Source: a virus. From it: a DNA stretch of 64,000 nt. Position numbers and translations under genes: made by a program. The stretch lies in IMG/VR virus record IMGVR_UViG_3300029094_000045. The stretch is one strand, 5' to 3'. This document shows, in pieces, positions 7,921 to 43,163 of the stretch (positions within the stretch are counted from its first letter, which is position 1; each line of letters opens with the position of its first letter). The notes under the pieces were generated by a model, which was given only the letters and a program-made list of their open reading frames with translations, searched no databases and had not been told where the DNA came from.

Positions 7921-10479
7921 TTATTTTACTCTTGCTTCGTAAATTCTCGGTTCAGCTAAACTATATCGTTGACCAAGATATTCATACTCGCCGTTCGGAT
8001 CGTGAACTGGCAATTGCACGGGAACAGGTTTGATATTTTCAACTACGCCAGCACCAGCCATATGCCATAAGAACTTCTTGAATTTATTGGGATACTTCTC
8101 ATAGCAAAGCACCACAAGAATATTGGCCAGCTCTCTCACATCTGGACACACCAGCTTGCACTTGTTACGGTAGACATTGTAAATCGCCTGCCAGTTGGTT
8201 TCATAGGTCTTAGCTTCTTCTTTTGTAATTTTATCTTTGAGGTCATTCTTGTAGAGCTGCCAATTGTGGCATTTCTTTTCGAAGAGAAGCTGTTCCTTAC
8301 GGTAACGATTGAAATCAAGGAAGATAGCCTCGATCTGGTCAAATACCGACTGGTCATAGCCGATTTCTTTATCGAACATAATGTGCCAATCAAAGTTGCC
8401 AGCAGGCTCTTTATGCCAGCGAACACCACGTTCCCAACGTTCCAAACTCATACAAAGTAGACTCATATTGCTGTGCGCTTTGCTTAGATTGTGAAGCCGT
8501 GCATAATAGGGACCGTTGTATTTAAAGAAATATGGCATTCCACTTGCTTTTGCCCATTTACTGATCTGACGAGGAATAGGGTAGAGCACACCGGTTTTTG
8601 CGAAATCCACAGCTTTCCCGTTTGCTACAGAAAGAAGATCAATATAGCCCTCATATAACTGTTTTGTTTCCTCTGTACGTGCGACCCGGTTATGATATAC
8701 AGATGCCATGTTGCTGATCTCGCCAATCATACTTTTTAAACCACGAAGAGTACAAGCGAGCTTATTTTCAAGGTTGTCTATTTGGGCAAGACTAGTTACT
8801 TTGTCTTCAATATCAATAGTAACATATCCATCATCAGGGATAGTATTGATAATAATTGGCTCATTTGACAACAGCGTTAAGTCTCCATCATAATCGGCTC
8901 CAGACAAGCGTTGCGGGGTTATTGAAAACACGTTAATCATGCAGCAGTTGACGAGATGACTGCAATATTTTTGTGTCAATTCATTGTCAACACCTTTTAG
9001 CTTAACATGCTCTTGGTGACATATATGTGGGTTGCGTCCCAATGCGCGTTCACCTAAAATAACACCGCGTCTATCAAAGCTATAAAACTCATCGGCTTTA
9101 AGGCAACCCTTTATAGGAAGTTCCGCAATAGCCTCCATTAAAGCTATTTGATCTGGAAGCAGAAATTTAAATGTCGCGTTAAAAAATAGCTTTCCACACT
9201 TAAATCCATTGCGATATTTATCGAGGAGACTATGGAAATAATCTTTAACACTTGGCTCATGAACCATTTCTGGATTGCGCATAATAGCCGCAACATAATG
9301 ATTGAGTGGTTCAGTATTATCAGATAGTGCGCCAAGAAAACAGTATGTAAAAATCGGATCGCCACGTACGATCTTTTCATACCAATCTACTGATTTATCT
9401 GCTAGATGTTTAAATTCATCAAATGGAACATTCTGTAGGTCTTGGATAAGCTGGTAATTTCCTAAGCTAACTAAAACCTCTTTATCTGCTTGATAATTCC
9501 ATTTTGCAATACCTAATGCATGATCGTATTTCAAAGCAAGTTCTTTGTAGCGGTTCCAATCATTAACAGTTCCGTCTTGCTTAAAATATTTATATCCCTT
9601 GTACATGCTTTCACAAGCAATAAACATCGGCTCTGCATCACGAGTCACGGAATGTTTGATACCCCAAATGTCGGTGATTTCAGTAACACCACGCTCTTCG
9701 TAAAATGAAACATAATCCATTTCATTGAAAACACCTTTGAAATATGGCATACGAAACACCATGCTATTGATTCGTTCCGTTGTCCCAATTCGGTGCTCTA
9801 CTTCGCGCATCAAAGAAGGATGAGCAATACCGCATCCATCAAACATATTGATTTCAATGTCTGTTTCTTTTTTAGCGATTGCTTTTTGTTTCCAAGTGCG
9901 TTTTGCCCCGGTTTTCTGATCTACGAATTCGACTTCTTCGTCACGAACATATTTAATCTTTTGATTTGGAATAGTTGTAAAAGTATCTGGTACAACAATA
10001 ATTTTCGGAAACCATTCTCGAAGTGCGATACAATGACAACTTGAAAGCACAAGGCCGCGATAAGCATAATATTTACTAAGCACCGTCGGCTTGTCCTTGA
10101 AATCCAAATCCATACTGATTCGCTTATTAACTTCTGGCCAAATGTGAGATTCAACCATTGAGAAAATAAATTGACGAATCATAGAAGCGCTACGGTCGCC
10201 AAAAGAAAAATGATATTTACCGATTTTTGCGCCATGCTCAATCAAGTGACGGACTACTTTTGGCTTATTCTGAGCGCCAGTTGCATCGATAAATACAATA
10301 AAAGGATTGTAATCGTCATAGTTGTTTGACACAATTCTAATCTGACGAAGTAACATTGTATCAGACTGGAGCACTTGATATTGTGCATCGTTCGCAACTT
10401 CTGCCGGAATTTTGTAATTATATTTTATAAACAGACTTAAAGGATATTTGCGAACAGTGTAACTTTTAGGGCTGATCAA
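7921..10479 (-). CDS. large polymerase-like protein with an ADYDGD motif; candidate YonO-like single-subunit RNA polymerase
   Basis: 852-aa ORF containing SGADYDGDLTLL, which matches the NADFDGD catalytic loop of two-barrel RNA polymerases and YonO-type phage RNAPs (YonO is ~840 aa). No other polymerase-family motif (A, B or C) was recognised. The ORF is secure; the function is tentative. Confidence 0.35.
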   Translation of the reverse strand: MISPKSYTVRKYPLSLFIKYNYKIPAEVANDAQYQVLQSDTMLLRQIRIVSNNYDDYNPFIVFIDATGAQNKPKVVRHLIEHGAKIGKYHFSFGDRSASMIRQFIFSMVESHIWPEVNKRISMDLDFKDKPTVLSKYYAYRGLVLSSCHCIALREWFPKIIVVPDTFTTIPNQKIKYVRDEEVEFVDQKTGAKRTWKQKAIAKKETDIEINMFDGCGIAHPSLMREVEHRIGTTERINSMVFRMPYFKGVFNEMDYVSFYEERGVTEITDIWGIKHSVTRDAEPMFIACESMYKGYKYFKQDGTVNDWNRYKELALKYDHALGIAKWNYQADKEVLVSLGNYQLIQDLQNVPFDEFKHLADKSVDWYEKIVRGDPIFTYCFLGALSDNTEPLNHYVAAIMRNPEMVHEPSVKDYFHSLLDKYRNGFKCGKLFFNATFKFLLPDQIALMEAIAELPIKGCLKADEFYSFDRRGVILGERALGRNPHICHQEHVKLKGVDNELTQKYCSHLVNCCMINVFSITPQRLSGADYDGDLTLLSNEPIIINTIPDDGYVTIDIEDKVTSLAQIDNLENKLACTLRGLKSMIGEISNMASVYHNRVARTEETKQLYEGYIDLLSVANGKAVDFAKTGVLYPIPRQISKWAKASGMPYFFKYNGPYYARLHNLSKAHSNMSLLCMSLERWERGVRWHKEPAGNFDWHIMFDKEIGYDQSVFDQIEAIFLDFNRYRKEQLLFEKKCHNWQLYKNDLKDKITKEEAKTYETNWQAIYNVYRNKCKLVCPDVRELANILVVLCYEKYPNKFKKFLWHMAGAGVVENIKPVPVQLPVHDPNGEYEYLGQRYSLAEPRIYEARVK

Positions 10480-11302
10480 CTATTTCACTCCTTTTACAAC
10501 CAAATGGAATTGTTAATATTTCTTTTGGCGTCCAACCTCTATCATAACGGCTTCTGATTAAACTAGTGGACAGCCCCGTTAATTCAGACCATTCTAAAAT
10601 AGATTTTTTCTCTCCATTGTATTCTATCATGCGAGTATTTCTTTTATTGTTGGCTTGTTCCAACATTGTTTTCCATTGACAATTTTCTGGACAATAATTT
10701 CCATTATTATCAACACGATCTATGGTATATTGGCCTCTAGGAGCTGTTTCGTCATATCCTGTTTTATCTGCCCATTCTTTGAACCTTAAAAAATCTTGCC
10801 ACTCATCACAAACTTTAATACCTCGTCCACCGTAATTAGAATAATGTTTGTTTTCGTGCTTTGTACAACGAGACATCATAGCAAACCATACTTCATAAAG
10901 TCTTGATTTACCAAAACCACCTTGTGTAACATGAGAGCATCCACAAGTCTTTGACCGTCCATTAACCAGCAAAGAGCCTATAACATCAACTTCATTACCA
11001 CAATCACATTTGCAATGCCAATAAACTTTTTGATTAAGATATTTTGGCGAACGACAAACCACAGTTAATTTTCCAAAACGTTGTCCTGTAAGATCTTTTG
11101 CCCATTTCCGATGTTTTAAACATCCGCAACTTTTTGTATTTCCGGTTCTAAGTGCGTCTCCATCAACAATACATTCGTTTCCGCATTCACAAATACACTT
11201 CTATCTAGATCTGTGACGGCCATCAGCTTGGATGTAATCTTCCTCTTGATTTAATACAGTTAATTTCCCGAATTTTTTACCTGTTAAATCAACGAATTTC
11301 AT
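10466..11302 (-). CDS. HNH homing endonuclease with tandem N-terminal LTGxxFGKLTV/CxCxCGN modules; carries one in-frame TAG at 11201..11203
   Basis: C-terminal DRVDNNGNYCPENCQWKTMLEQANNKR is an HNH motif. The upstream frame reads MKFVDLTGKKFGKLTVLNQEEDYIQADGRHRSR*KCICECGNECIVDGDALRTGNTKSCGCLKHRKWAKDLTGQRFGKLTVVCRSPKYLNQKVYWHCKCDCGNEV...; the same module repeats on both sides of the TAG, so the frame is real across it. The start codon overlaps the stop of the preceding gene (TAATG). Confidence 0.55.
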
Positions 11303-12129: not shown

Positions 12130-12408
12130 TTACAAAAGGGACTCGCAGTAACAAGGCCCTGTTAATTGTTCTATTTTGTGCTCGATTTTAGTAATTCTAT
12201 CTTGTAGTTGTTCGATAATGGCTTCATATGGGTCTACTGTTGTTTTTATAGTGCCCGCATAACTCATTACAAATTGAGACATGTCATTCGCTCTGTTTAC
12301 ACGCTCGCAGGCGTTTTCAACAGTCTCTCGTGTTGTATGAATAAGATTATCTACAGTATCAAGTCTGGCGACAATATCTGGCACAATCGTTATTTCTGAT
12401 TCATCCAA
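12130..12408 (-). CDS. small protein of the ECxCxSLL C-terminal tail family (ends PCYCESLL)
   Basis: 92-aa ORF with a TAA stop; the C-terminal tail motif is shared with 16 other ORFs in the window. Confidence 0.5.
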   Translation of the reverse strand: MDESEITIVPDIVARLDTVDNLIHTTRETVENACERVNRANDMSQFVMSYAGTIKTTVDPYEAIIEQLQDRITKIEHKIEQLTGPCYCESLL

Positions 12409-12423
12409 AATTCTTACCTCCTG

Positions 12424-12609
12424 TTATAGCAGACTTTTGCAAATACAGCTGTTCATGTATTTATTTATCAGTTCAAAGTATCGTTTGTACATTCTTTCGG
12501 CAAATGGACCATAGAGTTTCTGTCCGAATCGTTTACCCTCTAATATAAGGGACACACTTCTATTTACTATAAAAGTCCTTGGTGGCTCACCATATTGGTG
12601 CATTGTCAT
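12424..12609 (-). CDS. small protein of the ECxCxSLL tail family (ends NSCICKSLL)
   Basis: 61-aa ORF carrying the shared tail. Confidence 0.45.
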   Translation of the reverse strand: MTMHQYGEPPRTFIVNRSVSLILEGKRFGQKLYGPFAERMYKRYFELINKYMNSCICKSLL

Positions 12610-12752
12610 TTTTTCTTCATCTATATCAAACCTGAAGTCCTCAAATTTTATTTTTCACTCTTCTTCAATCTCGTTATGTAATTGCATGGCCGCATCTGAC
12701 ATTGCAATTTCCAAGATTTCGTCGTCGAATTTGCTTTCACGAACATATTTAC

Positions 12753-13295
12753 TCATAATAGACTTCTACATACACATTCAGACTGTGCTTCTTCCATCGC
12801 TTGACGAATCACGTCGTTTAAACACTCTGGGATGATATGAAAGGGTTTGAAATTGTTAAACTCGTTCGCAGCCATTATGTTAAAGATGTTTGTAAATCTC
12901 ATTTTCTCTTCTGAAATATATCGAGCGTCTTCTTCGCCATATAGCGGCACAAGCGCTTTAAAAAATTTCATAGAATCAACCTGCCCCAAACATTCATCAA
13001 AGTAGAAGATCGTATATTCTACGCCGAATTTGACCTTATCGAACTTTTGCCAAAATTCATCAGGGGATTTACAAATCACGGTCACTTTTCGATGCTTCTG
13101 CGTAGAATTTAATCCTTCGTACCACGCACATACCGGGTCATAATTGTTTGGATGTACGAATAAAACACGCATATGTTCTTCTCCTTCATAAAGTCTTCTT
13201 GGGTATCGATACTGCGAACCGTATACTAGTGTTCTGGCTTTGTTGTCAATTCTATGTTTATATTTATTGAACAAATTACGTATTCTATCAATCAT
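12753..13295 (-). CDS. 180-aa protein of the ECxCxSLL tail family (ends SECVCRSLL); N-domain differs from the other members
   Basis: Carries the shared tail. Confidence 0.5.
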   Translation of the reverse strand: MIDRIRNLFNKYKHRIDNKARTLVYGSQYRYPRRLYEGEEHMRVLFVHPNNYDPVCAWYEGLNSTQKHRKVTVICKSPDEFWQKFDKVKFGVEYTIFYFDECLGQVDSMKFFKALVPLYGEEDARYISEEKMRFTNIFNIMAANEFNNFKPFHIIPECLNDVIRQAMEEAQSECVCRSLL

Positions 13296-13756
13296 ATCAA
13301 GCTATCACACACGCATTCATCCTGTGGCACTTTTTGAGACGTAGTTGGTGGTGTAAGCACAACTTCGCTCGGGTCATAAGTGACCATAGAACAAGCAGCA
13401 ATTTGGATATCTGGGAAACACATAAACTGAAAACAACGATCAATGTCGTCAACAACAAGCGGCTTGTTTTCTAGATGCAATCCACGATAATGATCGAGAA
13501 ATTCACTTGCCACTAATATATAGATCTTATATTCTCCACGTTCTCTACTTTGTAAATCCACTACAAAACATTGATGGTTAATACTATATCCATAATATTG
13601 AACACCCAAGGCGCTAGCGATTTCTTTTATGTAATCTTGCGCACACCGAACGGCAGTGTTGCGTGTCGGCACTAAGATGTTACAGTTGTTCTTGACAGCG
13701 TATTTGCAAACTCGATAAGTGCGCCCTCCACCACGCGGCGTTAATATTCGTTCCAA
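13292..13756 (-). CDS. 154-aa protein of the tail family (ends DECVCDSLI)
   Basis: Carries the shared tail with an L-to-I change at the last residue. Confidence 0.5.
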   Translation of the reverse strand: MERILTPRGGGRTYRVCKYAVKNNCNILVPTRNTAVRCAQDYIKEIASALGVQYYGYSINHQCFVVDLQSRERGEYKIYILVASEFLDHYRGLHLENKPLVVDDIDRCFQFMCFPDIQIAACSMVTYDPSEVVLTPPTTSQKVPQDECVCDSLI

Positions 13757-13770
13757 ATTTCACCACCTCC

Positions 13771-14007
13771 TTATAACAGTGATTGACATATGCATTCATT
13801 TTCGGATTCGGGATAGTAGGGAATTGGACAATCGTATTGAGCTGCACGTCGATCTTCAGAGCAATTTCCTGGATGAAGTATCTGTCGTGGATGAAAACGT
13901 AGGTCATGGCCAAGCTCCCAGCGGAATCCTTGATAGTCGAACCAGATAGTATCTTGACTTTTGCTCAGAGCATCATATAGATTGTTTATCACAGCATCAA
14001 ATGTCAT
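13771..14007 (-). CDS. 78-aa protein of the tail family (ends NECICQSLL)
   Basis: Carries the shared tail. Confidence 0.5.
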   Translation of the reverse strand: MTFDAVINNLYDALSKSQDTIWFDYQGFRWELGHDLRFHPRQILHPGNCSEDRRAAQYDCPIPYYPESENECICQSLL

Positions 14008-14021
14008 ATACCACTAGCTCC

Positions 14022-14592
14022 TTAATCGTCAGTAAAAGCAGAGAACGGAACAAATTCGATATTTTCAGGAAGTGATACGATAAGCTTTCTTGCAACTGCG
14101 ATGCCATGACCAGCGTGATAAAACGTCATATAACGAGTGAGTTGCTTTAAGGCTTTTGCGTCAAAATTATGTAATTTACATTCAACAGGAATCAGCTCGT
14201 CGTTACGATTTATCCACGCATCCGGCTTGTGTTTAGGATTGTCTTTGTGACTGACAATCTTTCCATATCCAAGTTCTTCTGCTTTTTCTTTGAATAAATC
14301 TTGATAATATAATTCGTTTTTGAAATAAAAATTTCTTGCGATTTTCTCAAAAGTAGCTTCATATAATTCATTAAAAACTACATCGCCACGATGGTGATAA
14401 AGAGCACTTGTATTTTTCAAAATAAGCTTTGCGGAATCTTTATTGTCCGCATGAAGAGCAAGAGCTAACATATGAAAGCGATCAATATGTTCCCCATCAA
14501 TATAAATTTCAAGCTCCCCATCTTCTTCAACAACTTGATAAACGTGACCCATCATTGTTATTTCGTCTACGATCTTCAGCTCGTTAGTCATG
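14022..14592 (-). CDS. hypothetical protein (possible PD-(D/E)xK-like nuclease)
   Basis: Track ORF 14022..14819 overlaps the PhoH gene; the likely start is the internal Met of MTNELKIVDEI at about 14592. It contains DELIPVECK. Function is weakly supported. Confidence 0.3.
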
Positions 14593-14625
14593 TTTGTTCT
14601 CTTACTGCTTGCGCAGTCTATGTAA

Positions 14626-15981
14626 TCAGTCCAACAGATCTGCCAGTTTAGCGGTCTCGCTTCGTTCGCTGATTGGCATATACACAACACCAAACCGTTG
14701 CTGACCTGTGAGACATTCGATTGCCTTTTGAAGACCATTATTTGACTCAAATACAACATCATCAATCTGTCGCAAATCGCCATTGAGCCACAGGGCACTA
14801 TCTCCGCCAACACGTCCAATTAGCAACTGAACATGCTCCTTAGTAAGATTTTCTGCTTCGCTGCAATAGATTATAGACCGTTTATAGCTTCGACCTCGAA
14901 TTGGTCCAAGATGTTCCAGTTTAACCCAACCATCAATAATGGCACGCTCAAGAGCTACATCGCCGCCAAGAGTATCGGATAGTGGTCCTGCATATGGCAT
15001 CAATTTTTCATTCGCAGTACCTGGCAAAAAACCAATCGACCTAGAATTCTTAACCTCGACGGTGTTGCGAACCCAAACAATTCTGTCGTATTTGCCTTTT
15101 TCAATCAAGTCGATAGCGTGATTAACCATCAGGAAATCCTTGCCGCTGCCATACACACCAAGAAGCAGTTTGATTGTGATATCGTCGTTCTGAAGTAGGT
15201 CAAAGGCGAGCTTTTGCTGATCATTAAGAGGTTTGATTTTCCCTGAGTATGCAGTATTCAGGTTCTTGTATCGCAGTGGATTCCAGCGTACCCCATCCCA
15301 ACGGATCGCTGCTGTATTTCCATCAGCATCTGCGTTCGGAATAAGGATGTATCCATTGGTGGGTGTATCAAACAGATTCTTTTGCTCGACATCTTTGGAG
15401 TACGCCATCGCCATAGTCTCTTCGCCACCATCTGCCAGAGCGACCTCAGTCCATCCAGTGTAGTCATTCTTTGTGGTTGCTGCGTTAGGGAAGATGAACT
15501 CGACTGGAAGCTGGAGAATGCCACTGGCGATATTGGCACAGCTCAAATCGCTGGTAACGAATTTGAAAGAATCAATCAAAGAAGAAATATAGGCGGCTTG
15601 GTTACTGCTTGCTTCGTCGAGCACAGTAGGTAAGTCATCCAGGTTTCGCTTCTGCTGATCCAACCACCACCGTGCGGTCGCCATGATCGTCGCGTCATTG
15701 TTATCGCTGATTGGCTTACCATCAAGAATATAGAATAGGGAAGTCATAGGGACCGCTACTACGGTATAGCTGCCATCGTCGCGATGTTCGGCAAGCAAGC
15801 GAGTGACTGTGCGGGTTTTGTAACGGATGTCTTCGGTCTTTTTACCGTTAGTTTTGATCTCTTCCAGCTCGTGTAGGGTCATATCTGCAATCAGAAAAGG
15901 CAGCGCAGCTGGTTCGAAGGCTGCGGCTCCTAGATCTAATAAGGCAGATGTGTCGTAAAAGTTCATTTGGCAAACCTCCAT
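14626..15981 (-). CDS. phoH: PhoH-like ATPase with an N-terminal PIN domain
   Basis: Walker A GVYGSGKDFLM; an N-terminal PIN-like acidic region (YDTSALLDL...HELEE); 451 aa, typical of phage PhoH/YlaK-family proteins. Confidence 0.65.
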   Translation of the reverse strand: MEVCQMNFYDTSALLDLGAAAFEPAALPFLIADMTLHELEEIKTNGKKTEDIRYKTRTVTRLLAEHRDDGSYTVVAVPMTSLFYILDGKPISDNNDATIMATARWWLDQQKRNLDDLPTVLDEASSNQAAYISSLIDSFKFVTSDLSCANIASGILQLPVEFIFPNAATTKNDYTGWTEVALADGGEETMAMAYSKDVEQKNLFDTPTNGYILIPNADADGNTAAIRWDGVRWNPLRYKNLNTAYSGKIKPLNDQQKLAFDLLQNDDITIKLLLGVYGSGKDFLMVNHAIDLIEKGKYDRIVWVRNTVEVKNSRSIGFLPGTANEKLMPYAGPLSDTLGGDVALERAIIDGWVKLEHLGPIRGRSYKRSIIYCSEAENLTKEHVQLLIGRVGGDSALWLNGDLRQIDDVVFESNNGLQKAIECLTGQQRFGVVYMPISERSETAKLADLLD

Positions 15982-17265
15982 TTTTTGGCATGACTATTGA
16001 AAAGTGACTTTCTTGATTGAATGAATGGGCTCGCAGCTGTGGAGAACGCTGCGGGCTTTTCTCTTTATACCTTATTATACACCCGGACACGCATAATATC
16101 AATAGTTTTGCATAGTATACCGGAATAAAATATTTAGTTGTTAGTATTTAGATAATGAAGCGAAATCGTACAAAAACAATACAAAATTAAGCAAAATGTG
16201 CCCCAATTTGGCAAAACAAAGCCATTTCTACTGCGTTTTGGGATGTTTCTACTGCATTCCGAGCCCTGCCGAGTGGTAAAAACAGGTGAATTTGGCAGTA
16301 AAATACTATATAAAATGTGACGATAATACGATGTTTACCGGATCGAGTTCCGGAGCGATTTTGGGGTGTTTTAGGCACTGTTGAGCACTGTCTGATATAT
16401 GTAAATGTTGCAAACTGGCAGTGCCTAGTTTGATGGAATTTTGATGCCAGCGAGGTGTGATCCGAAGGGTTTTAGAGAGGGTGGGGAGATGGAATAACTG
16501 GTACACAGGAGGCAAACTGACCCCGCTTTGGAATTTTTAACCAGCCCCCACTATGGCCCGAAAAATCTAGGATTCATGCGGGTTTTCGGCGAATCGCACC
16601 TTCTGTTATTAGGTGTTATTCGGTGGCAGTCAATCGGGAATTTATACCTATTTATATATAGGCGAGGAGCGGCTTTGGATTTTATAGGGCGTTTGTAGGG
16701 CGTTTGTACACTTGTTGCAAAAATTTCTGAGTATGGCATACTGTAGTCACTCCAAGGGAACACGGAAAGCCCACCGGAACGGTGGTGGGCGGGGGCTGAG
16801 CGGGATGCCCCCATACTGAGGATAGCACTTTGAAAATTTAAGTAAAGTAGAACGGCCACGACGGCCACGGTTTTTGCCGAACATTGCACTTGTTGTACTT
16901 GTTTTCGCCGCGTGGAGATTTGCATATACTTGCCGACTATAGCCGACCGGATAAATAAGCTATAGGTGCGCCTCAGTAAAGCGCACGGTGACAGTGTTCA
17001 CAAGTAGCCATTGCACAAAAGTCCTAGCTATATCTTTAGCGGTGGACGTGCAATCGCAAGTGTCGAGACACGCGGGGCAAGCTGTCACTCTTACCCCAAA
17101 TAAGGCTTAAAACTACCTCTTTGGGGTACAAAAGCAAAGTTTTTCAGTGCTCACAAGTGTAAAAAGCTTGTGGGTGCTTGAGACGGTGCAAGCGCAAGTT
17201 TGTACCGCGTCAAGTGTGGCAACACGGCCACGCTGAGCAACACATAAGCAAGAGAGGTAAAAATT
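15982..17265. promoter_or_regulatory. divergent intergenic control region between the leftward and rightward gene blocks; candidate early promoters and origin
   Basis: 1.3 kb with no credible ORF. Tandem AGGGCGTTTGT x2 near 16686..16708; ACGGCCACG x3 (16851..16870 and 17215); inverted CACAAG/CTTGTG near 17150. All genes to the left are minus-strand and all to the right plus-strand. Confidence 0.4.
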
Positions 17266-18087
17266 ATGACTAATCCTAAGAACGTCAAGACTACTGAGCT
17301 GGCCGCACTGGTTCTCGCAATCGCCGACCCTGAACAGGAAGTGTCCGCAATCACCAAGAAGTCTCTTGAGGACTTCAATGTTTCCGCCGTCACGGTCGAG
17401 GGTATTAAGAAAATCTCGGACGCCGTATATTCCGACATTGCCGCTATGGTGATGCTTCGCGAGAGCAAGGGTACGGCAGAAGAGGACATTCCCGCCCTGA
17501 AGGCCGCCGAAGATAAGGCACGTAAGTCCATGGCCGCATGGTTCTATGGCCTCGGTTCTCGTGACCCCAATAAACCCGATGGCAAGCGCCGCCCCCTGTA
17601 TAGCGTGACCGTCCCTGACCTTGTACTTATGGGCGAAGTGTCCGCAGATGCAAGAGCAGACGCCAACAACGATGCAAGCAAGGTTTCGGACTGCTTCTTG
17701 AAGTATCTCATCTTTGAGACTGCCCGCATTCTGAATGGACAGCCCCTTGCCCGTATCAGCGCCGCCGACTTCAAAAAGGCACGCAAGGCCGCAAACGACG
17801 CTAAGGCAAAAAAGGCCGCTGACACTAAGGCCGCCAACGAGAAAAAGGCCGCAGATAAAGCCGCTGAGGAAAAGAAAGCAGCTGACGAAGCAAAGGCAAA
17901 AGACGACAAGATTGCTCAGCTGGAAAAGAAAGTGGCCGACTACGAGGCTCGCAGCATCGACATTGTGGCGGTTGTTACCCTCGTCAACAAGAGCCACGCA
18001 ACGCAGGAAGAGAAGCAGGCTATTCTGGACGCTCTGTATGGTCGTACCAAGAAGGCCGAAGAGGCTAAGACCGAAGATAAGCAGTAA
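17266..18087 (+). CDS. Ala/Lys-rich repeat protein (histone H1/AlgP-like KAAx repeats); first gene of the rightward block
   Basis: C-terminal half is KKAADTKAANEKKAADKAAEEKKAADEAKAKDDK. The gene is locally GC-rich, which generates spurious antisense ORFs (17113..17997 and others). Confidence 0.5.
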   Translation: MTNPKNVKTTELAALVLAIADPEQEVSAITKKSLEDFNVSAVTVEGIKKISDAVYSDIAAMVMLRESKGTAEEDIPALKAAEDKARKSMAAWFYGLGSRDPNKPDGKRRPLYSVTVPDLVLMGEVSADARADANNDASKVSDCFLKYLIFETARILNGQPLARISAADFKKARKAANDAKAKKAADTKAANEKKAADKAAEEKKAADEAKAKDDKIAQLEKKVADYEARSIDIVAVVTLVNKSHATQEEKQAILDALYGRTKKAEEAKTEDKQ

Positions 18088-18150
18088 CTACCCATAACCG
18101 GATACCCTTTCGAGGTCGCACCGTTCAAAGCGGCCTCTTTCCAACGCAGT

Positions 18151-18783
18151 ATGCGTAGCGCCTTAGAGTGTGGCGCATTTTGCACACTCAGAAAAGAGGT
18201 TATCATTATGTCATGCCCTTACATCATTCGTGAGAATATCGGCTTTGGCCGTGTTCGTGAGCATGGTTATTACCAGTTTGACGAGATGGTCTATGACCTG
18301 ACCCACGGCTTTGTAAACACAGACGTCGAGGTCATCGCTCGTACCCTGTACAACGTCACCATGGAGAGCGGCGAAGAACTCTCCCAGCTGGACGACGACA
18401 CAGTGTTCAAGATGTTGAGTGCCGGACTACCTGTCAAGTACGTCAAGAATGCAAGAGATGGGTATATCACATACTCTCGTCCTGAAAGCAAACCCGTTGC
18501 CAAGGTCAAAAAAGTCGGCGGTATCACTCGCACTAATGCAATCGCTCGACCCGTCAAACAATATGACCATCCCATCTTTGCTTCCATTTCTGACGGAACT
18601 AACTGGTACACAGTTGCAATCGTGGACATGTACAATAATGTCGCTCTGTACCGCTTTAATGACTTCGATGAAGCTGAGAAGCGTTTCAGAAGCGCTCTGG
18701 GTAAAGCATGGTTCAGCGCAACCATGTGGGCAAATAATACGGCCATCTTCAAGTGTATTGAAGGCGAGCCTATTTGGCGCTGA
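18151..18783 (+). CDS. hypothetical protein
   Basis: 210-aa ORF with an RBS; followed by a conserved GTCCCGGGCATGAC element. Confidence 0.4.
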   Translation: MRSALECGAFCTLRKEVIIMSCPYIIRENIGFGRVREHGYYQFDEMVYDLTHGFVNTDVEVIARTLYNVTMESGEELSQLDDDTVFKMLSAGLPVKYVKNARDGYITYSRPESKPVAKVKKVGGITRTNAIARPVKQYDHPIFASISDGTNWYTVAIVDMYNNVALYRFNDFDEAEKRFRSALGKAWFSATMWANNTAIFKCIEGEPIWR

Positions 18784-18894
18784 TGTTTTTGTCCCGGGCA
18801 TGACGTTAAACTGCTCACCCCTACAATCGGAACGCCTTGACGTGGCCTAGGGGCTTTGAACTGAGAGTCCGAAAGAAAGAGAGGTAAACACGCA

Positions 18895-19488
18895 ATGAAA
18901 ACAAAACCGACATTTAAGACCGGCAATGCGTGGGTGATTCAAGCAAAAGAGTCAATCACGTTTTGTGGTAACACTGTCAATCCTGGCGAACTTTATGGTT
19001 CGTTTGACGGTGTTCATTTCATCACGGAAGCACGTGCAACTGCTTCTGGGATGTATCCTTCCATGGCGATTCTAAATAATGGTTCTAAGTGGGTACGAAT
19101 TTGCCCTACTAAAATCAGCGAATTTCTTCTCGATGCAATCCATCAGCACCGCATTCAGGTTTGGAAGATTAAATCCAAAGCTGAAAAGCAAGCTGAACTT
19201 GCAAAACGCCAAGAGAAAGTGATGTACAATCACGCCTTTAATGATAACTGTAAATCTTGTATTCGTCGGTTCAAAGGCAAAGGCATTGGTCGTAGTGCTG
19301 GCAATTCTCCAATTATTCTTTCGCGTGAATACCAAATCACAAGTCAAGAAATTTACGGCGGTCAGATTGATATGAATGGGAAAATCAAATTCATGAACAA
19401 CAAAATGGCCCAATATATGGACGGCAATACGACTGACGGCTACCGTCCTCTCAATCCTCAGTTTCCTGTAAAATCTGGTAAACGATAA
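18895..19488 (+). CDS. hypothetical protein
   Basis: 197-aa ORF preceded by an AGAGAGG RBS. Confidence 0.4.
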   Translation: MKTKPTFKTGNAWVIQAKESITFCGNTVNPGELYGSFDGVHFITEARATASGMYPSMAILNNGSKWVRICPTKISEFLLDAIHQHRIQVWKIKSKAEKQAELAKRQEKVMYNHAFNDNCKSCIRRFKGKGIGRSAGNSPIILSREYQITSQEIYGGQIDMNGKIKFMNNKMAQYMDGNTTDGYRPLNPQFPVKSGKR

Positions 19489-19811
19489 TTGATTTTCGTC
19501 TTGAATTTATCTCCACTATCCATTACAATGTGGTTAGTCCTACTCCATTCCAGCATAGGAGGTAAATTCAATGGCTGAAAATAAATTCGTAGTAAAAACC
19601 ATCAGCTGTCTCCGAGATGAACTAAAAGTCTTGACAGAGAATGAGTTCCCTACGAGAAAAGAAGCAGAAGAGTTTCGTGATTTGACCATGTACGCTATGA
19701 AGCTAAACTATGGCGAAAACCAGACCGTTGTTCGAGTCGAAATCGAAGAGCTTTGATGCTTCACGTCCCGGGGCATGACATAAAACCGCCCTAATTTAAT
19801 AACCAACCCCA

Positions 19812-19853
19812 ACGTCGCTTCAAGCAAACGCAAGAAGCGACGTTTTCTTTTTA
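19812..19853 (+). terminator. intrinsic terminator
   Basis: GTCGCTTC (loop aagcaaacgcaa) GAAGCGAC followed by GTTTTCTTTTT. Confidence 0.55.
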
Positions 19854-22800
19854 CCTCTTTTCTTTATGCCGTGCGATTAGCGGTCACGGGGAAGATAGTA
19901 ACCGCCCCAACGCGAAAGCGTCAAAAAAATGCAATTAAACACAGTAGGAAAGGAGTCCACCAAGCATGTCTATCATTGCAATCGAATCCGCTTATGACCT
20001 CGCAATCATGTTCGGAGACAAAGAACTTGCTGCCGTATATCGTGAAGCACTTGTCGAGGCCGGCGTTCACTACGAAAGCAAGGCGACGTGCTGGGCTGAC
20101 TGAAAGGAGACTTCAATATGAAATGGATTCTGACCGCCGGGGGTGGATACACTAGTTATCAGGCACAATGTCTGAGCCCGCTCATCTGGTTGCTCGTACT
20201 CGGTGCAATCGGTTACGGCCTGATGGAGTACCTCGAATCGAACCCCAAGACCGCGGCCAAGGTAAACCGCTGGATTGAAAGGAGACTGCATGTTCATTAC
20301 GATGATGATTGAAGCATTCGGTGACGATGAAATCGGTAACATCGATTTTGATGCTCAGGACATCAAGACGCATGAAACTGAAGAAACCGCTATCGAAGAG
20401 TTTCATCGCCTCGAAAAGAAGGCGATAGGTTCTGGCGGCAATGGTTTTTACTATCGTCCGATTAAAATTAAAGTGTAAAGGAGAACACGCAGTAGTATGA
20501 ATGAAATCGAAAATCGAATCGAAGAGTTGAATACAAAGCTCGACGAGGCCGTAGATGTCTATCTGTGCGTGAAAGCAGTATTCAATCTGTATCCTTGTAT
20601 CAGATCAGAACTGGGCCTGCGTCTTGCAGCAAATCGTGTCTCTGCCGCAATCAACCGAACCGAAGAAGCATTACGGCAACTCGAAAAGGAAAAAGCTGTC
20701 ACCGCGCCGCACTTCATTCTTCGTATTGAAACCCCCAATAAGATCCTCGAGTATGAGTACGTGGGCGAATACGATGCTTTCCTTGCTTATAAAAAGGCTT
20801 GCCTTGATATGAAGCTGAGCCGCAAATCTACTCGGGTTTCTCTGAGTCGCGGCGATACCGTGTTCAAGAGCGCTGACCTGATGTGACGCCGCAGAAAGGA
20901 GCTGCGAAGCATGAAGCGCATTCGTCCTGTCCCTGAAGACTCGCGAGTGATTGCTGTGTATCCTATTTGCAATTATGGCGGCGTCGAGATCCTTTCTGTC
21001 AAAGAAGATGTCGATGCTATCAGAGCCGAGGTTGCAATCAATACGGGTGACCGCCGCGAATACAAGGAATTCTACAAAATCAATCGAACAAAAACAACTG
21101 ACCGTGCATTCTTCAAAATGTACGGTCTTCTTTATTATCTGGATCAGTTCCAGCGAATCCGATAAGGGGGCGCAGCAGTGTCTGAAACCTTCTTGGCAGT
21201 GTGTGTCTTGGCTATCTTGGCAATGGGATACGCGCTGTATCTGATCGGCGTAGCAATCTATATGTTGGGTTGCTGTCGCAAATTTAACCGCACAGTCGAT
21301 GTGATTTCACATTGGCTTTTATCATTCTGGGAAGATTGTGTCTATGATGTTATCGTAGTCGCAGCAGCTTTGGTTGTGATTATAATTTCGTTATATGGCA
21401 CTTTCTAGTATACAACAAATCAAAGAAAAGAGGAAATTAAAATGCTGTTTTACCGTGTCAAAGAAGAAGCTGACAAGAAGCCCATGTTTATCAAGAAGCG
21501 CAACGGTATCGAATACTGGTCCATCTACGTCGGTGGCGAATTGTTTACAGCAAACGAGATGGCGCTGCGTCATCTGAATCCGGACTACATGTATCCGGTC
21601 GAAGTGAATCTGCGCAAGACCCAGTTCGTGTTCGGCGCTCGTATGCCGATGCCTGACGCAAATATCACCGCAATTCAGACGAAGAAGAACGAGGAGGGTA
21701 TTTCTAATGAGATGATTAAAAACATTGTCGATTTCGTTTCTGCTGCCGGCCGTCCTCAGTCTGAGCGTAAGCGCGGTGTCGTTCGCGTCTGCAAATCACA
21801 GTCTGGTTCAGTCGCCCACGGCTAACTCGGCGGCGGCACTCAACTCGGCGGGCAGATACATTCTCGGCGGCATTGTTAGCGCGGCGTACTACGAAAACGG
21901 TACGCGAGTTCTGAATATCGTCGATGAGAGTGGCGAAGTCTGGTGTGCAACTGTGCTGAGGACTGACCCGGCGGGTGACTAACCTAGCGAAAAACAACCT
22001 GACGGTTGGGAGGTGACTTAATGGCATCTGAATTTGTTCCTGAGTATGTCGTCGTCGTAGAGATCCCTTATCCGAGACGAATTCAAACCAAGACTACAAG
22101 TTTCGCTACGCTTGAAGAAGCGGCTCGTGAGTATTATGGCTATAAAAATTATATCCGCAATAACGCCGATGGCTATCATGCGTGGCTGAAAAAGAAGTCG
22201 GAAGACGGAAGCTACAAAGTGCTCGAAGAGTGCTCGTATGAGATCCTTCATCCGTCGGAGAAATAAATCTCAAGCGCAACAACCCAAACAAAGTATTCGC
22301 AGAGGGCTCCCCAGCAATAGTTGGGGAGTAATGCGGCTACGGAGACTGCAGAAATCCGTACTGGTCCCAAGCCCAGAACGCAGCAGCGTAAAGAAGCGGG
22401 CGCTCCGCAGCCATAATGAAATCCGATTCGATTTTGATGTGATGGCCACACTGATAAATCGATGACGAGAGTAAATTATGGGGCGTTTCTTGAATGAGCG
22501 AAACTAAACGAAAGGAGGGTTTATAGCTTGAATTGTAAACTTTGTTGCCCGCAATCGGTGGGCGTAGCAGCTGGTGCAAAGGTCGCGTCTTACTCCACTG
22601 AGCGAAATTTCATGGCATGGCGATACAAACTGTTCTGGCACCTAATTTAGATTGAGTTTTTTTGACTGATTTGGCAGTTGATGCTACAGGGGTAGTTGTC
22701 CCCGATATGTTTGATGGGATCATATAATAAAACCTATCTGGTGTCACCGACCATGTTCCTCGCCTGAAATATGGGAGACAAAAATAAGTGAAGGGCGGAT

Positions 22801-35228: not shown

Positions 35229-35633
35229 ATGGGAGGTAAGACCAGTCGCGATAGTCGCGAAAGGTACAATAAAAAAACATACGATCGAATCAACCTGATG
35301 ATTAGGAAAGATTCGCCGATCAACAAAGATTGTATCGCAAAGGAAGCGCAACGTGAAGGGAAGAGCTTGACAGGTTATATCCTTGATGCTGTTTGTGATC
35401 ACATCGAAAGAGAGAAACAACTCGAAAATTTTCCTACTTGTCCAGAATCTAATCTTGAGCCTCCGAAGGTTTTTGATGAGAACGGTTTGAGATACGAACT
35501 CAACTATCGTGAAATGTGTTGTCTCCTTTATAAGGCATTGAGGGATGACCCAAATCTGACAGAAGGTATGAGAAAATCACTCATTGGAATTATTCGTCAG
35601 ATGCACGACACCTTGATTGACGTTTCGTGGTGA
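35229..35633 (+). CDS. ribbon-helix-helix (CopG/Arc-like) DNA-binding protein
   Basis: N-terminal SRERYNKKTYDRINLMIRKD...KSLTGYILDAV has the RHH pattern. Confidence 0.35.
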   Translation: MGGKTSRDSRERYNKKTYDRINLMIRKDSPINKDCIAKEAQREGKSLTGYILDAVCDHIEREKQLENFPTCPESNLEPPKVFDENGLRYELNYREMCCLLYKALRDDPNLTEGMRKSLIGIIRQMHDTLIDVSW

Positions 35634-35893
35634 GCCCAATGGAAAGAAAGTTCAAATATGGAGACATTGTGGTACTCGATGGAGACATTGTCCACGAGGA
35701 AGACACTAATCACAATATCTCGGGTAGAGTGGTTGGATATTCTTTTAATCCATTCGAAAGTTGTCCCACCGTAGAAGTATTTACTCCATTTAAGTTTGGA
35801 GAGAAAAGACTTTCTACAGTAGATTTCCTTGGTGACGATTGGTGGAGACTAGTCAAAGAACCGACCGAGTGCTACTGCGAATCATTGCTTTAA
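35627..35893 (+). CDS. ECxCxSLL tail-family protein (ends EPTECYCESLL)
   Basis: 88 aa; KYGDIVVLDGDIVHEE resembles the PGD-V-x-R-DL start of the tandem family. Confidence 0.5.
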   Translation: MVSPMERKFKYGDIVVLDGDIVHEEDTNHNISGRVVGYSFNPFESCPTVEVFTPFKFGEKRLSTVDFLGDDWWRLVKEPTECYCESLL

Positions 35894-36141: not shown

Positions 36142-36567
36142 ATGAAGGCAACTGTTAAGTACAATTCTCTGTTCATCACCAGCGCATACGACATTGAGAC
36201 CCTGAAGAAGGTGGCCAAGTTCCGCAAGGAGGCTCTGACTCTGTACAAGGGCGAAGGCAAGGATAAGACTCCTGTGTGCAGCATCGCTGTCAGTAAGACC
36301 GCCGTTGCTAACAACCTGGGCATCACTTTCGCCAAGGACTCTGCTACCGAGCCGAAGCTCGCCACCATGAGCATTGACCTGCCCGATGATGCAAACACTA
36401 CCGAGAAGATCAACGCTTTCGTTCGTGACAAGCTGGGCCTGACCATTGTCAACTGCATCAAGATCGAGGAGCAGATCGCCGCTGCTCTGACCGAGATCGC
36501 TGGTGACGAGGCCGCTATGAACGCCGTCATCACTATCGAGAATGAGCCCGAGCACGCCGCCGAGTAA
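36142..36567 (+). CDS. hypothetical protein, first gene of the Ubl/JAB/E1 cassette
   Basis: 141 aa, with a strong GGAG RBS. Confidence 0.4.
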   Translation: MKATVKYNSLFITSAYDIETLKKVAKFRKEALTLYKGEGKDKTPVCSIAVSKTAVANNLGITFAKDSATEPKLATMSIDLPDDANTTEKINAFVRDKLGLTIVNCIKIEEQIAAALTEIAGDEAAMNAVITIENEPEHAAE

Positions 36568-36706
36568 GAGCTCCGCTGAGTAAGCGTTAAGCGCCGCTAT
36601 GGTTCCACGCCGGATGTTCCAGAGCAATACGTCCGGCATTCGTTAAGATGATTCGTCAAATGACGTTTCTACAATAATTTTTCAAATTGAAGAGGAGATA
36701 CATAAT

Positions 36707-36943
36707 ATGCTGCAGATTACTGTGGGTACCAACACCAATCGTAAGGTCGTCATGATTCCTGAGGATTACACCCTGCGTCAGTGCCTTGAGGAGAATGGCG
36801 TCAACTACTCCGCTGCCCAGACTTCTCTGGATGGTTGCGTCCTTCAGCCTGGAGATATGGACAAGACCTTCGCTGAGATGGGCATCACCGAGAAAGCTTA
36901 TCTGGTTTCCGTCCAGAAGATGGATAACGCTCTGGCCGCCTAA
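36707..36943 (+). CDS. small ubiquitin-like (beta-grasp) candidate protein ending ...NALAA
   Basis: 78 aa. MLQITVGTNTNRKVVMIPEDYTLRQCLEENGV...LDGCVLQPGDMDKTFAEMGITEKAYLVSVQK has the same strand/helix spacing as ubiquitin and ThiS/MoaD. It ends in Ala-Ala, not Gly-Gly. The fold is inferred from pattern only. Confidence 0.35.
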   Translation: MLQITVGTNTNRKVVMIPEDYTLRQCLEENGVNYSAAQTSLDGCVLQPGDMDKTFAEMGITEKAYLVSVQKMDNALAA

Positions 36944-37097
36944 TTCTGGGCGAATTTAAAATCCGAATGTAAATCTGTTTTTGGTTACAACAGATAAATA
37001 GCATTGCAGCCGCTGGCAGGCCGGTTAAAGTCTGCCTTATATATGTCCAGTATCTGGGCTTGATAATGCAATCACAAATTTTAAGGAGGAAGTTTAT

Positions 37098-38573
37098 ATG
37101 GCGTTCTCTGGTATTAAAACCAAGCTTGGTTCGCCCGAGTGTGAAGAATATTTCAACTCGATTGTTTACCGAAATGACTTCAAGGATGAAGACAATACCA
37201 TTGTGACGATTCTTCGTGCGATGATGAACGAGAAGCGGCTGGCAACTTTTAATGCAAAACCTGACGTGAAGGGCAAGATGCAGGTCCAGACTATCAACAA
37301 GGAAATTCGCTTTACGGGCGAGACTGCAAAAATTGACGCTGGCTACTATGGTGGCGCACATGGCCCTTTCAGTCAGGCAATTATCGGCCTCTGGTTGGTC
37401 TTCATTCCGAACAAAAATGCTTCGGACTACATCAAACAGGTCAAGGAATTCGACGAAGACTATAAGAAGCTTGGTTGGTCTCGTCTGGAAGATGTCTCTC
37501 TCTATCTGGATCGTAGCGGTGAGATTCTGGCGTATCAGAATGAAAAGAAGCAGGCCACAATTCTGTTTGCGCCGACGGCAAAGCGGATTCAGACCATGCA
37601 GATGGCGGCGAGTTGTATTTCTCGAATCTTTCCGTGGGCGTTCAAGGATTGTTCGCTGTCTGAGGACGAAATTGCATTCCTGAAACTGTTGAGTGAGCAG
37701 AAGTATACGGAGTTTAACGCAGCTATGGAAAGAAGCTACGCTGCGTACAACTTCTATGTTAAAAAGCTCCAGACTATTCTGCATGGGTTCTGTGACCAGA
37801 ATTATTCTCGCATGATCAAGAATCAGGAAGAGCGGGTTCGTCGTGCAGAGCGGACTGTTGATGACTATTATCGCAACGTAAGAAGCGCTCAGGACAGCCT
37901 CGAAGAAGAGCAAGGGAAGCTTCTGAGCCTGAGAAATCGAGCTTGTAACGGCGGAGAAGATGAAAAGGAGCTGATTGATTTCTTCTCTTCGAATAAGTCA
38001 ATCACTGTTCTCGGTAAATCCGGACGAGATCTCCGTCTTGGTGTGAATTGTTACCTCAATGACTTCAACGAAGATGTCTTCAAGCAGTATGTTGAGAAAC
38101 AGGATAGGGTGTCCAGTTACATCTATAGCGCAAGCCCTTATGGTCTGGAACTGACGAAGAAGTTATTCCTCGCTATTTGGAAGGAGCATCGCTTCAACTT
38201 GAGAGTTTATTGCGAATGGATTCTGTATGACGATTGCAATGTTGAAGCGGTTTCGCAGTCCAATATGGGAGGTCGTGACGACCTGATGGAAGACCGTATT
38301 CCTCAGCCTCATATCGATGATTACCAGTGCTTCAGAGGCTACACCGGCATTCTGAACGACCTTGCACGTTCTCGTGATTATATCGGAATCATGAGTACAT
38401 TGTTGAGTTCTTCCTCTTCTATCAATTGGACCGATTCTACAGTTGTTTCCAAGCTGATGAAACGGTTGTTTGAAACCAATAAGGATACGAAGTGTCTTGA
38501 GGATAAGGATGGCAACCATTATACCGTGGCAGAGGTCGTTAAAATTCTTGAAGACGAGGCAAAGGCGGCGTAA
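37098..38573 (+). CDS. 491-aa protein of unknown function between the Ubl-like and JAB genes (candidate E2-like or adaptor component)
   Basis: Co-directional and tightly spaced within the cassette. No recognisable motif. Confidence 0.4.
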   Translation: MAFSGIKTKLGSPECEEYFNSIVYRNDFKDEDNTIVTILRAMMNEKRLATFNAKPDVKGKMQVQTINKEIRFTGETAKIDAGYYGGAHGPFSQAIIGLWLVFIPNKNASDYIKQVKEFDEDYKKLGWSRLEDVSLYLDRSGEILAYQNEKKQATILFAPTAKRIQTMQMAASCISRIFPWAFKDCSLSEDEIAFLKLLSEQKYTEFNAAMERSYAAYNFYVKKLQTILHGFCDQNYSRMIKNQEERVRRAERTVDDYYRNVRSAQDSLEEEQGKLLSLRNRACNGGEDEKELIDFFSSNKSITVLGKSGRDLRLGVNCYLNDFNEDVFKQYVEKQDRVSSYIYSASPYGLELTKKLFLAIWKEHRFNLRVYCEWILYDDCNVEAVSQSNMGGRDDLMEDRIPQPHIDDYQCFRGYTGILNDLARSRDYIGIMSTLLSSSSSINWTDSTVVSKLMKRLFETNKDTKCLEDKDGNHYTVAEVVKILEDEAKAA

Positions 38574-38587
38574 AGGAGGTTTGATTT

Positions 38588-39499: not shown

Positions 39500-39516
39500 G
39501 AAAGGAAAATGCACAA

Positions 39517-40197: not shown

Positions 40198-40218
40198 TAA
40201 AATCGCAAATAAATAATC

Positions 40219-40476
40219 GTGATGAATAGTTGCTCTTTTATAAGCAATGCACTCAGGTTAAACCGAGTGTGACGAATTGTCAGGACGAGGTACCCCAGAA
40301 GGGAGGGCACGTGCGCGTGCCATGACGCTCGTCACCTGGTGAATTACGAGGCCACCTCGAAAATGCGAACCAAATACAACGATGAGACGTAGCAGCAAAC
40401 GCGGCCGTGATCTAACGTGCCGGCTAACAAGGCTAACAGAGCTCAGCGGATGCAGGAACCAACCTGTTTAGATCAC
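40219..40476 (+). ncRNA. conserved structured non-coding element, copy B, directly upstream of the RT gene
   Basis: Homologous blocks with copy A. Stem cactc/gagtg at 40250..40269. Internal palindrome ggcacgtgcgcgtgcc. Ends ~30 nt before the RT start codon. Confidence 0.4.
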
Positions 40477-40505
40477 GATTTTTTAAATTACATAAGGAGA
40501 AATAT

Positions 40506-42893: not shown

Positions 42894-43163
42894 ATGGAGT
42901 CGATAATGTATAAGCCGGGTGATAGAGTTACGATTCGTTCGGATTTGGAAGAGTACGAATGTTACTGTATGTTGTCTGGCCCCAAAAAAGAGAAAGGAAT
43001 GTTCTGCACCGTGCCGAGCATGGTTGCACAGGCCGGGAAAGTACTTACAATCGAAAAAATTCTAGAAGACGGAAGAGGTTATCAGCTTAAAGGATGTAAT
43101 CTCGGTTGGACGGATTCTATGTTTGAGTCAGCAAATGAATGTATTTGCGATTCGCTGCTGTGA
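42894..43163 (+). CDS. tandem-family paralog 1 (PGDRVxIRxDL...WTDxMFE...ECICDSLL)
   Basis: 89 aa. It carries the N-terminal domain shared by the 11 tandem paralogs and the family's C-terminal tail. Confidence 0.55.
   Translation: MESIMYKPGDRVTIRSDLEEYECYCMLSGPKKEKGMFCTVPSMVAQAGKVLTIEKILEDGRGYQLKGCNLGWTDSMFESANECICDSLL

Follow-up and report, generated by a model that had tools for sequence, protein, structure and literature searches.

A C-terminal tail shared by unrelated small proteins in one clade of human-gut phages: a probable docking tag

Encapsulin cargo-loading peptides are C-terminal tags of ~10 residues found on unrelated cargo proteins, and they dock on one receptor. The capsid targeting sequence (CTS) of phage T4 is an N-terminal leader of ~10 residues and is removed by the prohead protease. 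In T4, this short terminal peptide is the sole common feature of diverse, rapidly changing small phage proteins encoded at variable loci (PMC3012670). Here, we analyzed a 64,000-nucleotide stretch of the IMG/VR virus record IMGVR_UViG_3300029094_000045 (hereafter, the window), which is part of a large human-gut phage with related IMG/VR contigs of 140 to 150 kb, and describe a short tail that ends the products of 17 of its open reading frames (ORFs). Conceptually, the tail is a variant of the known terminal targeting and docking tags. As in T4, the tagged proteins are diverse, small, and encoded at variable loci, and as with encapsulin cargo, the tail is C-terminal and occurs on unrelated proteins (22 BLAST families). 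A literature string search for tail peptides returned nothing relevant, and no description of the tail was found in the literature searched. The best overall explanation, which we favor with some reserve, is that one co-evolving partner recognizes the tail as a short docking motif at the C-terminus.

A terminal motif on unrelated proteins

A six-frame scan of the window identified the pattern C.C.SL[LI] at the end of 17 stop-to-stop ORFs, 5 on the minus strand and 12 on the plus strand, the latter comprising one ORF at 35627 and 11 in an array at 42.9 to 49.2 kb. First-order Markov random sequences of the same composition averaged 0.04 such ORFs, with no more than 2 in any of them. The tagged genes represent ~14% of the ~119 plausible genes in the window, and no other recurring terminal motif was found among these genes.

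The five minus-strand genes (12130 to 14007), designated m5 to m1, have tails that fit [E/P/S]CxCxSL[L/I]. A first-pass annotation, made from the sequence alone, had described five adjacent tailed ORFs here, of 61 to 180 amino acids (aa), and each was recovered at its position and with its terminal peptide (92, 61, 180, 154, and 78 aa, from 12130 onward). The length of 61 aa did not hold, since the corresponding ORF (12424 to 12609) is the 3′ part of m2. Gene m5 (13771 to 14007) encodes an acidic 78-aa protein of BLAST family C5 that ends in NECICQSLL and had zero matches in Pfam or PHROG scans. The 154-aa product of m4 (13292 to 13756; phrog_1828, E = 7e-5) is predicted to consist of a terminase-ATPase-like mini P-loop domain (residues 1 to 125), a low-confidence linker of ~25 residues, and the tail ECVCDSLI, and the 180-aa product of m3 (12753 to 13295) of a Rossmann/flavodoxin-like alpha/beta domain (residues 40 to 172) followed by the tail ECVCRSLL. 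Gene m2 (12424 to 12756) has 110 codons, ends in NSCICKSLL, and is homologous to the 104-aa family C2, with homology to the 104-aa orthologs that spans the entire gene. It is disrupted by an in-frame TGA at 12655 to 12657, where an ortholog has Cys; this codon may be a nonsense mutation or a sequencing error, or there may be an internal restart that gives a 61-aa tagged fragment. Gene m1 (12130 to 12408), with a TTG start, encodes an acidic 92-aa protein of family C13 that ends in GPCYCESLL and is probably a coiled coil, judging from weak sub-threshold Pfam matches to coiled-coil families.

Apart from their tails, these proteins are unrelated. m1 to m5 each fall into a separate BLAST cluster, and profile–profile comparisons run with the tails stripped gave hhalign probabilities of <1% for all pairs of m1 to m5 and for the comparisons with the plus-strand array family. 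These results agree with the earlier statement that the N-terminal domains resemble neither one another nor the array, and profile methods did not unite them as a single fold. The solitary plus-strand gene (35627 to 35893; 88 aa, ending in ECYCESLL) gave an hhalign probability of 59% against the array family, and its product is probably a remote relative of that family by this measure. A search for the tail on further proteins, as the annotation had proposed, extended the set to 613 distinct tailed proteins in 22 BLAST clusters from 3.7 Mb of related loci, and locus L323 encodes four further tailed proteins with no BLAST match to any of the 22 families. Scans against Pfam, PHROG, NCBIfam, and PADLOC assigned no family to the tagged proteins except phrog_1828 (m4) and the N-terminal half of phrog_7488 (array).

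An exhaustive HMMER search with the m4 family recovered homologs of ~125 aa outside the clade (P0116, P0118, P0119, and P0124 to P0133) that stop just past the globular domain. The same search also returned tailed homologs ending in QLTCRSLL or ECYCETLL. No full-length tail-less homolog was found within the clade, so acquisition of the tail is directly shown for the m4 family only. In AlphaFold models, the linker and tail had pLDDT values of <50 in m4 and ~52 in m3, and these segments are probably flexible in both proteins.

Codon usage over 557 distinct 3′ ends of tagged genes was diverse. The tail serine was encoded by AGT, TCT, AGC, TCA, and TCG (thus both TCN and AGY), leucine by five to six codons, and cysteine by TGT about as often as by TGC. 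At the four conserved tail codons, synonymous differences (0.17 to 0.85) equaled or exceeded those of the gene bodies, and non-synonymous differences were near zero. This tail-versus-body comparison is partly circular because the sequences were chosen by motif, a circularity offset by the finding that virtually every homolog in the clade retains the tail. The codon-level check called for in the annotation thus found synonymous sites saturated and amino acids conserved; since the tail codons vary freely at synonymous sites, selection acts at the protein level. Counting back from the last residue (position 0), Cys(-4) is near-invariant in the two most common forms of the tail (flavors A and B, below). 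Variants within the clade have Pro, Gly, or Thr in place of Ser(-2), and in whole orthologous groups this position is Pro or Gly (for example, ECVCRPLL, PCICEPLL, and ECICEGLL).

Tail flavors and their distribution

The sequence of the tail is nearly uniform within a locus and differs between loci. In 223 loci, all tails (1,458) were of the form ECxCxSLL (flavor A), and in 27 loci all (199) were of the form Φ-x-C-[KRH]-SLL (flavor B); two loci were mixed, with a single exception in each. A third flavor, Φ-x-F-x-S-L-L (e.g., GISFQSLL and LQFRSLL), was found on all 20 tails of contig 3300045988_127729. Both clusters of that contig carry it, the array in L420 as well as the counterpart of the minus-strand slot in L323, and of the six L323 proteins, two show homology to families that bear Cys-type tails elsewhere. 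In all 59 contigs sampled at both regions, the two clusters, ~22 kb apart, agreed in flavor. Entire lineages have F, L, or Y in place of the first Cys.

Tail flavor tracks the genome, not the gene family. Gene conversion is excluded as the source of the concerted flavors because the codons differ, and the parallel amino acid change in many unrelated genes therefore points to one shared partner with shifted specificity. The annotation had stressed the cysteines, which the Phe at position -4 of the third flavor shows to be dispensable. This Phe flavor, the loss of the first Cys in flavor B, and the occurrence of Pro or Gly at position -2 together indicate that no Cys or Ser chemistry is obligatory. 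The common skeleton is Φ(-6)-x-[C/F](-4)-x-[S/P/G](-2)-L(-1)-L(0). The broader proposal of the annotation, that the tail is a portable functional tag and does not reflect shared ancestry of whole genes, is upheld by the unrelated heads, the tail-less m4 homologs, the selection at the protein level, and the genome-wise flavors.

Two distant relatives (L272 and L424) have the same order of genes for a ubiquitin-like (Ubl) protein, an E1 enzyme, a reverse transcriptase (RT), and an array. Their arrays are built of the same small 'xxGDxVxV' domain and carry other tails. In L424 (12816 to 15456 and 19491 to 20209), the tails are [IVL]SFD[DE]L[LI] followed by 2 to 9 residues, and in L272 (~28 genes, 12429 to 20368), an acidic run precedes EDLSxLM. 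As read from the sequences, both forms preserve Φ(-4)-x-x-Φ-Φ, a pattern characteristic of short docking motifs.

IMG/VR matches to a degenerate DNA pattern for the tail were confined to this clade. The same pattern gave 22 single matches in 185,579 species-representative genomes, approximately the estimated chance level; the real matches were phage-like contigs binned with a Peptococcaceae metagenome-assembled genome (MAG) and a Faecalibacterium MAG. Assignment of a host from these genomes was rejected because the match count was close to the chance estimate. The GGAGG-type ribosome-binding sites of the phage genes suggest a Firmicutes host. The tail pattern also led to a conserved 30-aa ORF ending in GEC[KR]CESLF in Flavobacterium genomes (L205, L212, L215, and L217), which is probably unrelated to the phage tag. 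No cultured relative with the tagged families was found, the sole match being a weak one to Brevibacillus phage Sundance. The tagged families are restricted to one clade of ~145-kb gut phages with a YonO-type RNA polymerase. In the window, this YonO-like single-subunit enzyme (7921 to 10479; 852 aa) matches the Pfam family RdRP (PF05183), and a YonG_N-domain gene is present in related loci.

Candidate partner and rival explanations

In order to locate the partner, alleles were compared between tail flavors. Alleles of a plus-strand block at 36142 to 44285 split cleanly by tail flavor. The block includes a 141-aa ORF, a gene for a 78-aa Ubl-like protein (36707 to 36943), a 491-aa ORF, a JAB-like gene (38588 to 39499), a ThiF/E1 gene (39517 to 40197), a retron-type RT gene (40506 to 41738), a 129-aa ORF (42225), and a recombinase gene. 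Over ~100 flavor A loci and 21 flavor B loci, identity to the window allele was ≥58% in A-flavor genomes and ≤40% in B-flavor genomes for the Ubl-like protein, ≥62% and ≤41% for the 491-aa protein, ≥64% and ≤43% for the 129-aa ORF, and ≥62% and ≤53% for the JAB-like protein, respectively. Alleles of TerL, the portal gene, seven further head-region ORFs, PhoH, the genes that flank the minus-strand slot, a 688-aa protein, and an AAA ATPase were common to both flavors, and RNA polymerase alleles, 54% to 98% identical, were also shared by different flavors. The genomes are thus mosaic. Because this block alone, among the sampled genes, tracks flavor, it is the leading candidate location of the partner.

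Five genes of the block (36707 to 41738) form a module of a Ubl-like protein, a protein of ~450 to 510 aa, and JAB-like, ThiF/E1, and retron-type RT proteins, which is also present in L271, L272, L273, L276, L420, and L424, from several diverged large-phage lineages. The Ubl-like protein ends in K-x-D-N-A, or in GG in L271, plus 0 to 3 extra residues. The module resembles a Bil/CBASS-type conjugation system carried by phages, and an RT accompanies it in every case.

We propose that the tail acts as a short linear docking motif at a free C-terminus, where a flexible linker joins it to small soluble domains that are unrelated to one another, and that it connects a large accessory protein set with fast turnover to one common partner. 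That the tail is a docking tag for a shared receptor appears highly likely. The partner would be phage-encoded and would co-evolve with the tails. It may be a component of the Ubl-like module (the Ubl-like protein, the 491-aa protein, JAB, E1, or RT) or a small neighbor, although we regard the placement of the receptor within the Ubl block as tentative, with the odds against it. The tagged proteins would then be clients or adaptors of the module, each with a variable target-binding head and a constant tail. More speculative still is the proposal that the phage's own Ubl conjugation module (Ubl, the 491-aa protein as an E2/E3-like component, JAB, E1, and the linked RT) is served by the tail-tagged repertoire, with heads that bind host or defense targets and tails that dock on the Ubl machinery.

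Several points weigh against this proposal. The congruence test covered the sampled genes, and ~60 kb of the genome lies outside the comparison. The block adjoins the array, so that linkage alone could account for much of the congruence. The Ubl-E1-RT module occurs without a nearby array in L271, L273, and L275/L276. The E1 enzyme has its own cognate Ubl with the conserved K-x-D-N-A/GG end, and the tails are therefore not obvious E1 substrates. The Ubl fold of the 78-aa protein is suggested by operon context and by non-significant PDB matches (E values of 0.2 to 0.9). A host-encoded receptor is possible; the receptor named here is a candidate only, and docking itself is a prediction from sequence. 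Cys-to-Cys co-variation between flavors A and B singled out no partner over the sampled genes. A role of E1 as activator of the tails was rejected, given that the operon encodes its own Ubl and that the Cys is dispensable, and the head proteins and the AAA ATPase were unsupported as co-varying receptors, their alleles being common to the flavors.

Two alternatives, both drawn by analogy, would assign the tail to a different machine. As a virion-loading signal, it would send diverse anti-host effectors into the procapsid for co-injection, in the manner of the T4 CTS or of encapsulin cargo peptides. Phage biology supplies the strongest precedent for this reading (T4 CTS; PMC3012670), the content and order of the cassette locus differ between close relatives here too, and NAD-salvage and Macro genes, plausibly involved in counter-defense, occur in the same window as the tagged genes. 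We nevertheless consider such loading improbable, since TerL, the portal gene, and seven downstream ORFs share alleles across flavors with no sign of co-variation, none of the tagged genes lies in the 10 kb downstream of TerL, the tagged proteins are mainly acidic (median isoelectric point of 5.0), and the operon of the minus-strand cluster sits behind a match to a host-type promoter. Alternatively, the tail could bring the tagged proteins, or targets bound to them, to a host or phage AAA+ protease or unfoldase, as a tether or as a degron, resulting in timed removal of the tagged proteins or degradation of their targets. Analogs would be the ClpX-binding peptide at the C-terminus of SspB, ssrA-type tags, and the C-terminal motifs of proteasome activators. 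A flexible linker with a hydrophobic extreme C-terminus fits this architecture, and the AAA ATPase gene (49622 to 50725) directly follows the array. Its alleles are incongruent with flavor, however, and its family, phrog_2376, exists independently of the tagged clade. Conserved host proteases would also poorly explain three lineage-specific flavors among phages that exchange genes, and the tail is unlike LAA-type tags. This explanation appears as doubtful as virion loading.

Explanations based on the chemistry of the cysteines or on the nucleic acid fare far worse, and we give each very little credence. The former would make the tail a CxC zinc clasp, a lipidation site, or a thiolactone or thioester, of the size found in autoinducing peptides (AIPs), that forms after E1-type adenylation. 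Such chemistry would account for the near-invariance of Cys(-4) in flavors A and B; a ThiF/E1 enzyme is encoded nearby, and Cys plus four residues matches the AIP ring size. As a general mechanism, it is largely refuted by the lineages in which F, L, or Y replaces the first Cys, by the 20 of 20 tails with Phe at position -4, by the more distant arrays with no fixed Cys, by the tolerance of Pro or Gly at position -2, and by the lack of a conserved partner Cys in the domains. An intramolecular zinc site in particular was rejected: the array family has no conserved internal Cys, and m2 has no other Cys. The remaining alternative is a conserved DNA or RNA element, a signal for translational coupling, or an effect of the nascent peptide on termination. 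The tail abuts the stop codon and the ribosome-binding site of the next gene, and stop codon usage over the 557 distinct 3′ ends is skewed (301 TGA, 255 TAA, and 1 TAG), with TAG at roughly 7% to 14% elsewhere; the scarcity of TAG may reflect the context of the stop codon and ribosome-binding site or a dependence on release factor 2. Against such a function, synonymous sites are saturated, with zero conserved nucleotide motifs, the tail also ends genes with no close follower, such as that at 35627, and lineage-specific changes of flavor are hard to square with a ribosomal target. A DNA-level explanation was rejected by the synonymous codon diversity.

The tag marks a functional set, from sequence alone, among otherwise unannotatable "hypothetical" proteins. 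It is present on about one in seven genes of the window, the human-gut phages of this widespread clade encode more than 600 distinct proteins that bear it, and its concerted flavor switching provides a clean handle for locating the receptor. Should the receptor be the phage Ubl module, this would be a phage Ubl system with a built-in adaptor repertoire, with bearing on phage counter-defense and on substrate specificity in Ubl pathways. If the tail is a packaging or degradation signal instead, it would still be a new portable targeting peptide, usable in engineering.

Genomic surroundings and comparison with described systems

The minus-strand tagged genes, of which m5 comes first, occupy a cassette slot between PhoH (14626 to 15981) and a conserved gene for an acidic 103-aa protein. 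The slot holds 4 to 8 tagged genes in related loci, and its families and gene order vary even among close relatives. The order of the m4 and m3 families in the window is inverted relative to L010 and L001. In L007, the m3 ortholog is 97% identical to that of the window, and a short ORF without a tag is all that occupies the m4 position. Translation of the five genes is coupled, either by ATGA overlaps (m4/m3, in which the m4 stop overlaps the m3 start, and m3/m2) or across spacers of 14 to 15 nucleotides (m5/m4 and m2/m1), each with a GGAGG-type ribosome-binding site. The best sigma-70-like promoter match of the region (TTGATA-17-TATAAT; 16074 to 16102, minus strand; 11 of 12 positions) lies upstream of PhoH and, as a consensus match, could drive a leftward operon that holds the slot; the total number of such matches was not above that of a shuffled control. 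An HNH endonuclease gene (10466 to 11062) lies between the RNA polymerase gene and the gene for a 116-aa protein. The window and L357 carry this gene, L280/L010 and L057 lack it at the same spot, and it probably is a mobile homing endonuclease gene.

On the plus strand, the first half of the array (42894 to 45723) contains seven tagged paralogs of ~90 aa, which start at 42894, 43173, 44282, 44562, 44868, 45152, and 45454, and the second half (48067 to 49207) contains four, at 48067, 48352, 48636, and 48920. A gene for a XerC/D-like tyrosine recombinase (43461 to 44285; 274 aa) is located inside the array, an arrangement that recurs in L420. The array spacers are too short for attC-like sites, and a role of the recombinase in array shuffling is not supported by the data. 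Between the two halves, a 688-aa protein (46004 to 48070) matches phrog_1735 (E = 2e-253) and has no Pfam match; Bacillus phages (Bcp1, TsarBomba, and others) and a phage record from Clostridioides contain homologs of ~55% identity, and many Salmonella and Klebsiella phages contain homologs of lower identity. The AAA ATPase that follows the array is of the classical type (phrog_2376, E = 8e-111). Neither the array family nor the 491-aa protein gave a match in PDB profile searches. Elsewhere, a terminase-related gene (1089 to 2639) is followed by the portal gene, which is located to the left of the window, and the window also encodes an anti-repressor. An NAD-related island (50737 to 55365) encodes PRPP-transferase-like, NAMPT, Macro domain, NAD synthase, and nicotinamidase proteins and is similar to phage NAD-reconstitution counter-defense sets.

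Several described terminal motifs and modified peptides were considered and rejected as counterparts of the tail. A class I PDZ ligand ([S/T]-x-Φ-COOH) does not fit the replacement of Ser(-2) by Pro or Gly in whole orthologous groups, and Pfam scans of ~40 window proteins revealed no PDZ domain. The beta-clamp motif QL[SD]LF begins with a conserved Gln, and the listed tails have Cys or Phe at this position, in no case Gln. The CaaX box has its Cys at position -3, and the tail has Cys at -4, or Phe in one lineage. The AgrD/AIP thiolactone precursors are short, with an amphipathic leader at the N-terminus and an acidic recognition tail at the C-terminus, and only the spacing that sets the ring size matches; here, folded proteins of 60 to 190 residues end at the would-be ring, and the Cys is dispensable. 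Ubl/E1 substrates of the ThiS, MoaD, Bil, or CBASS type, which have a beta-grasp fold and a flexible C-terminus that ends in Gly-Gly or similar and is activated by the neighboring E1, are discounted by the diverse folds of the tagged proteins and by the candidate Ubl encoded in the operon itself. Precursors of ribosomally synthesized and post-translationally modified peptides, which are short leader-core peptides encoded beside a maturase, were rejected on account of the folded domains of up to 180 aa and of the lack of a maturase family among the scanned neighbors.

The closest parallels are found among terminal targeting and docking peptides. The T4 CTS differs in position, since in 17 of 17 window genes the tail forms the extreme C-terminus and is immediately followed by the stop codon; moreover, the head genes do not co-vary with the tail. 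The encapsulin cargo peptide has a consensus rich in Gly, Ser, Leu, and Ile with no Cys or Phe at position -4, in contrast to Φ-x-[C/F]-x-S-L-L, and cargo genes adjoin the HK97-fold shell gene, whereas the tagged genes are far from the head module. The tethering peptides of AAA+ adaptors and activators (the SspB XB peptide and the HbYX and GQYL motifs) resemble the tail as hydrophobic peptides at the extreme C-terminus of a flexible linker that dock on a hub, but their sequences are unlike it, and no co-variation with flavor was seen for the nearby AAA ATPase. A presumed resemblance links the tail to two short Ubl-binding motifs, the LC3-interacting region/Atg8-interacting motif (LIR/AIM; Θ-x-x-Γ) and the SUMO-interacting motif (SIM), which has a hydrophobic core and an acidic flank. 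Acidic or polar residues often precede the skeleton [C/F]-x-x-L-L (F-D-x-L-L in L424), which stands on a flexible segment and is encoded beside a Ubl/E1/JAB operon with flavor-tracking alleles. LIR and SIM need no free C-terminus, however, and the Ubl fold of the 78-aa protein is weakly supported here.

In overall organization, the tagged proteins are similar to the poxvirus ankyrin/PRANC and F-box proteins, in which each of many paralogs has a diversifying part that binds targets and a constant element at its end for attachment to one machine. The hooks of those families are folded Skp1-binding domains of ~40 to 50 residues, whereas here the hook would be a peptide of 7 to 8 residues, and no E3-like component was identified. 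If tail-tagged adaptors do serve the phage Ubl module, the system would be a self-contained viral analog of the F-box or PRANC substrate-adaptor families.

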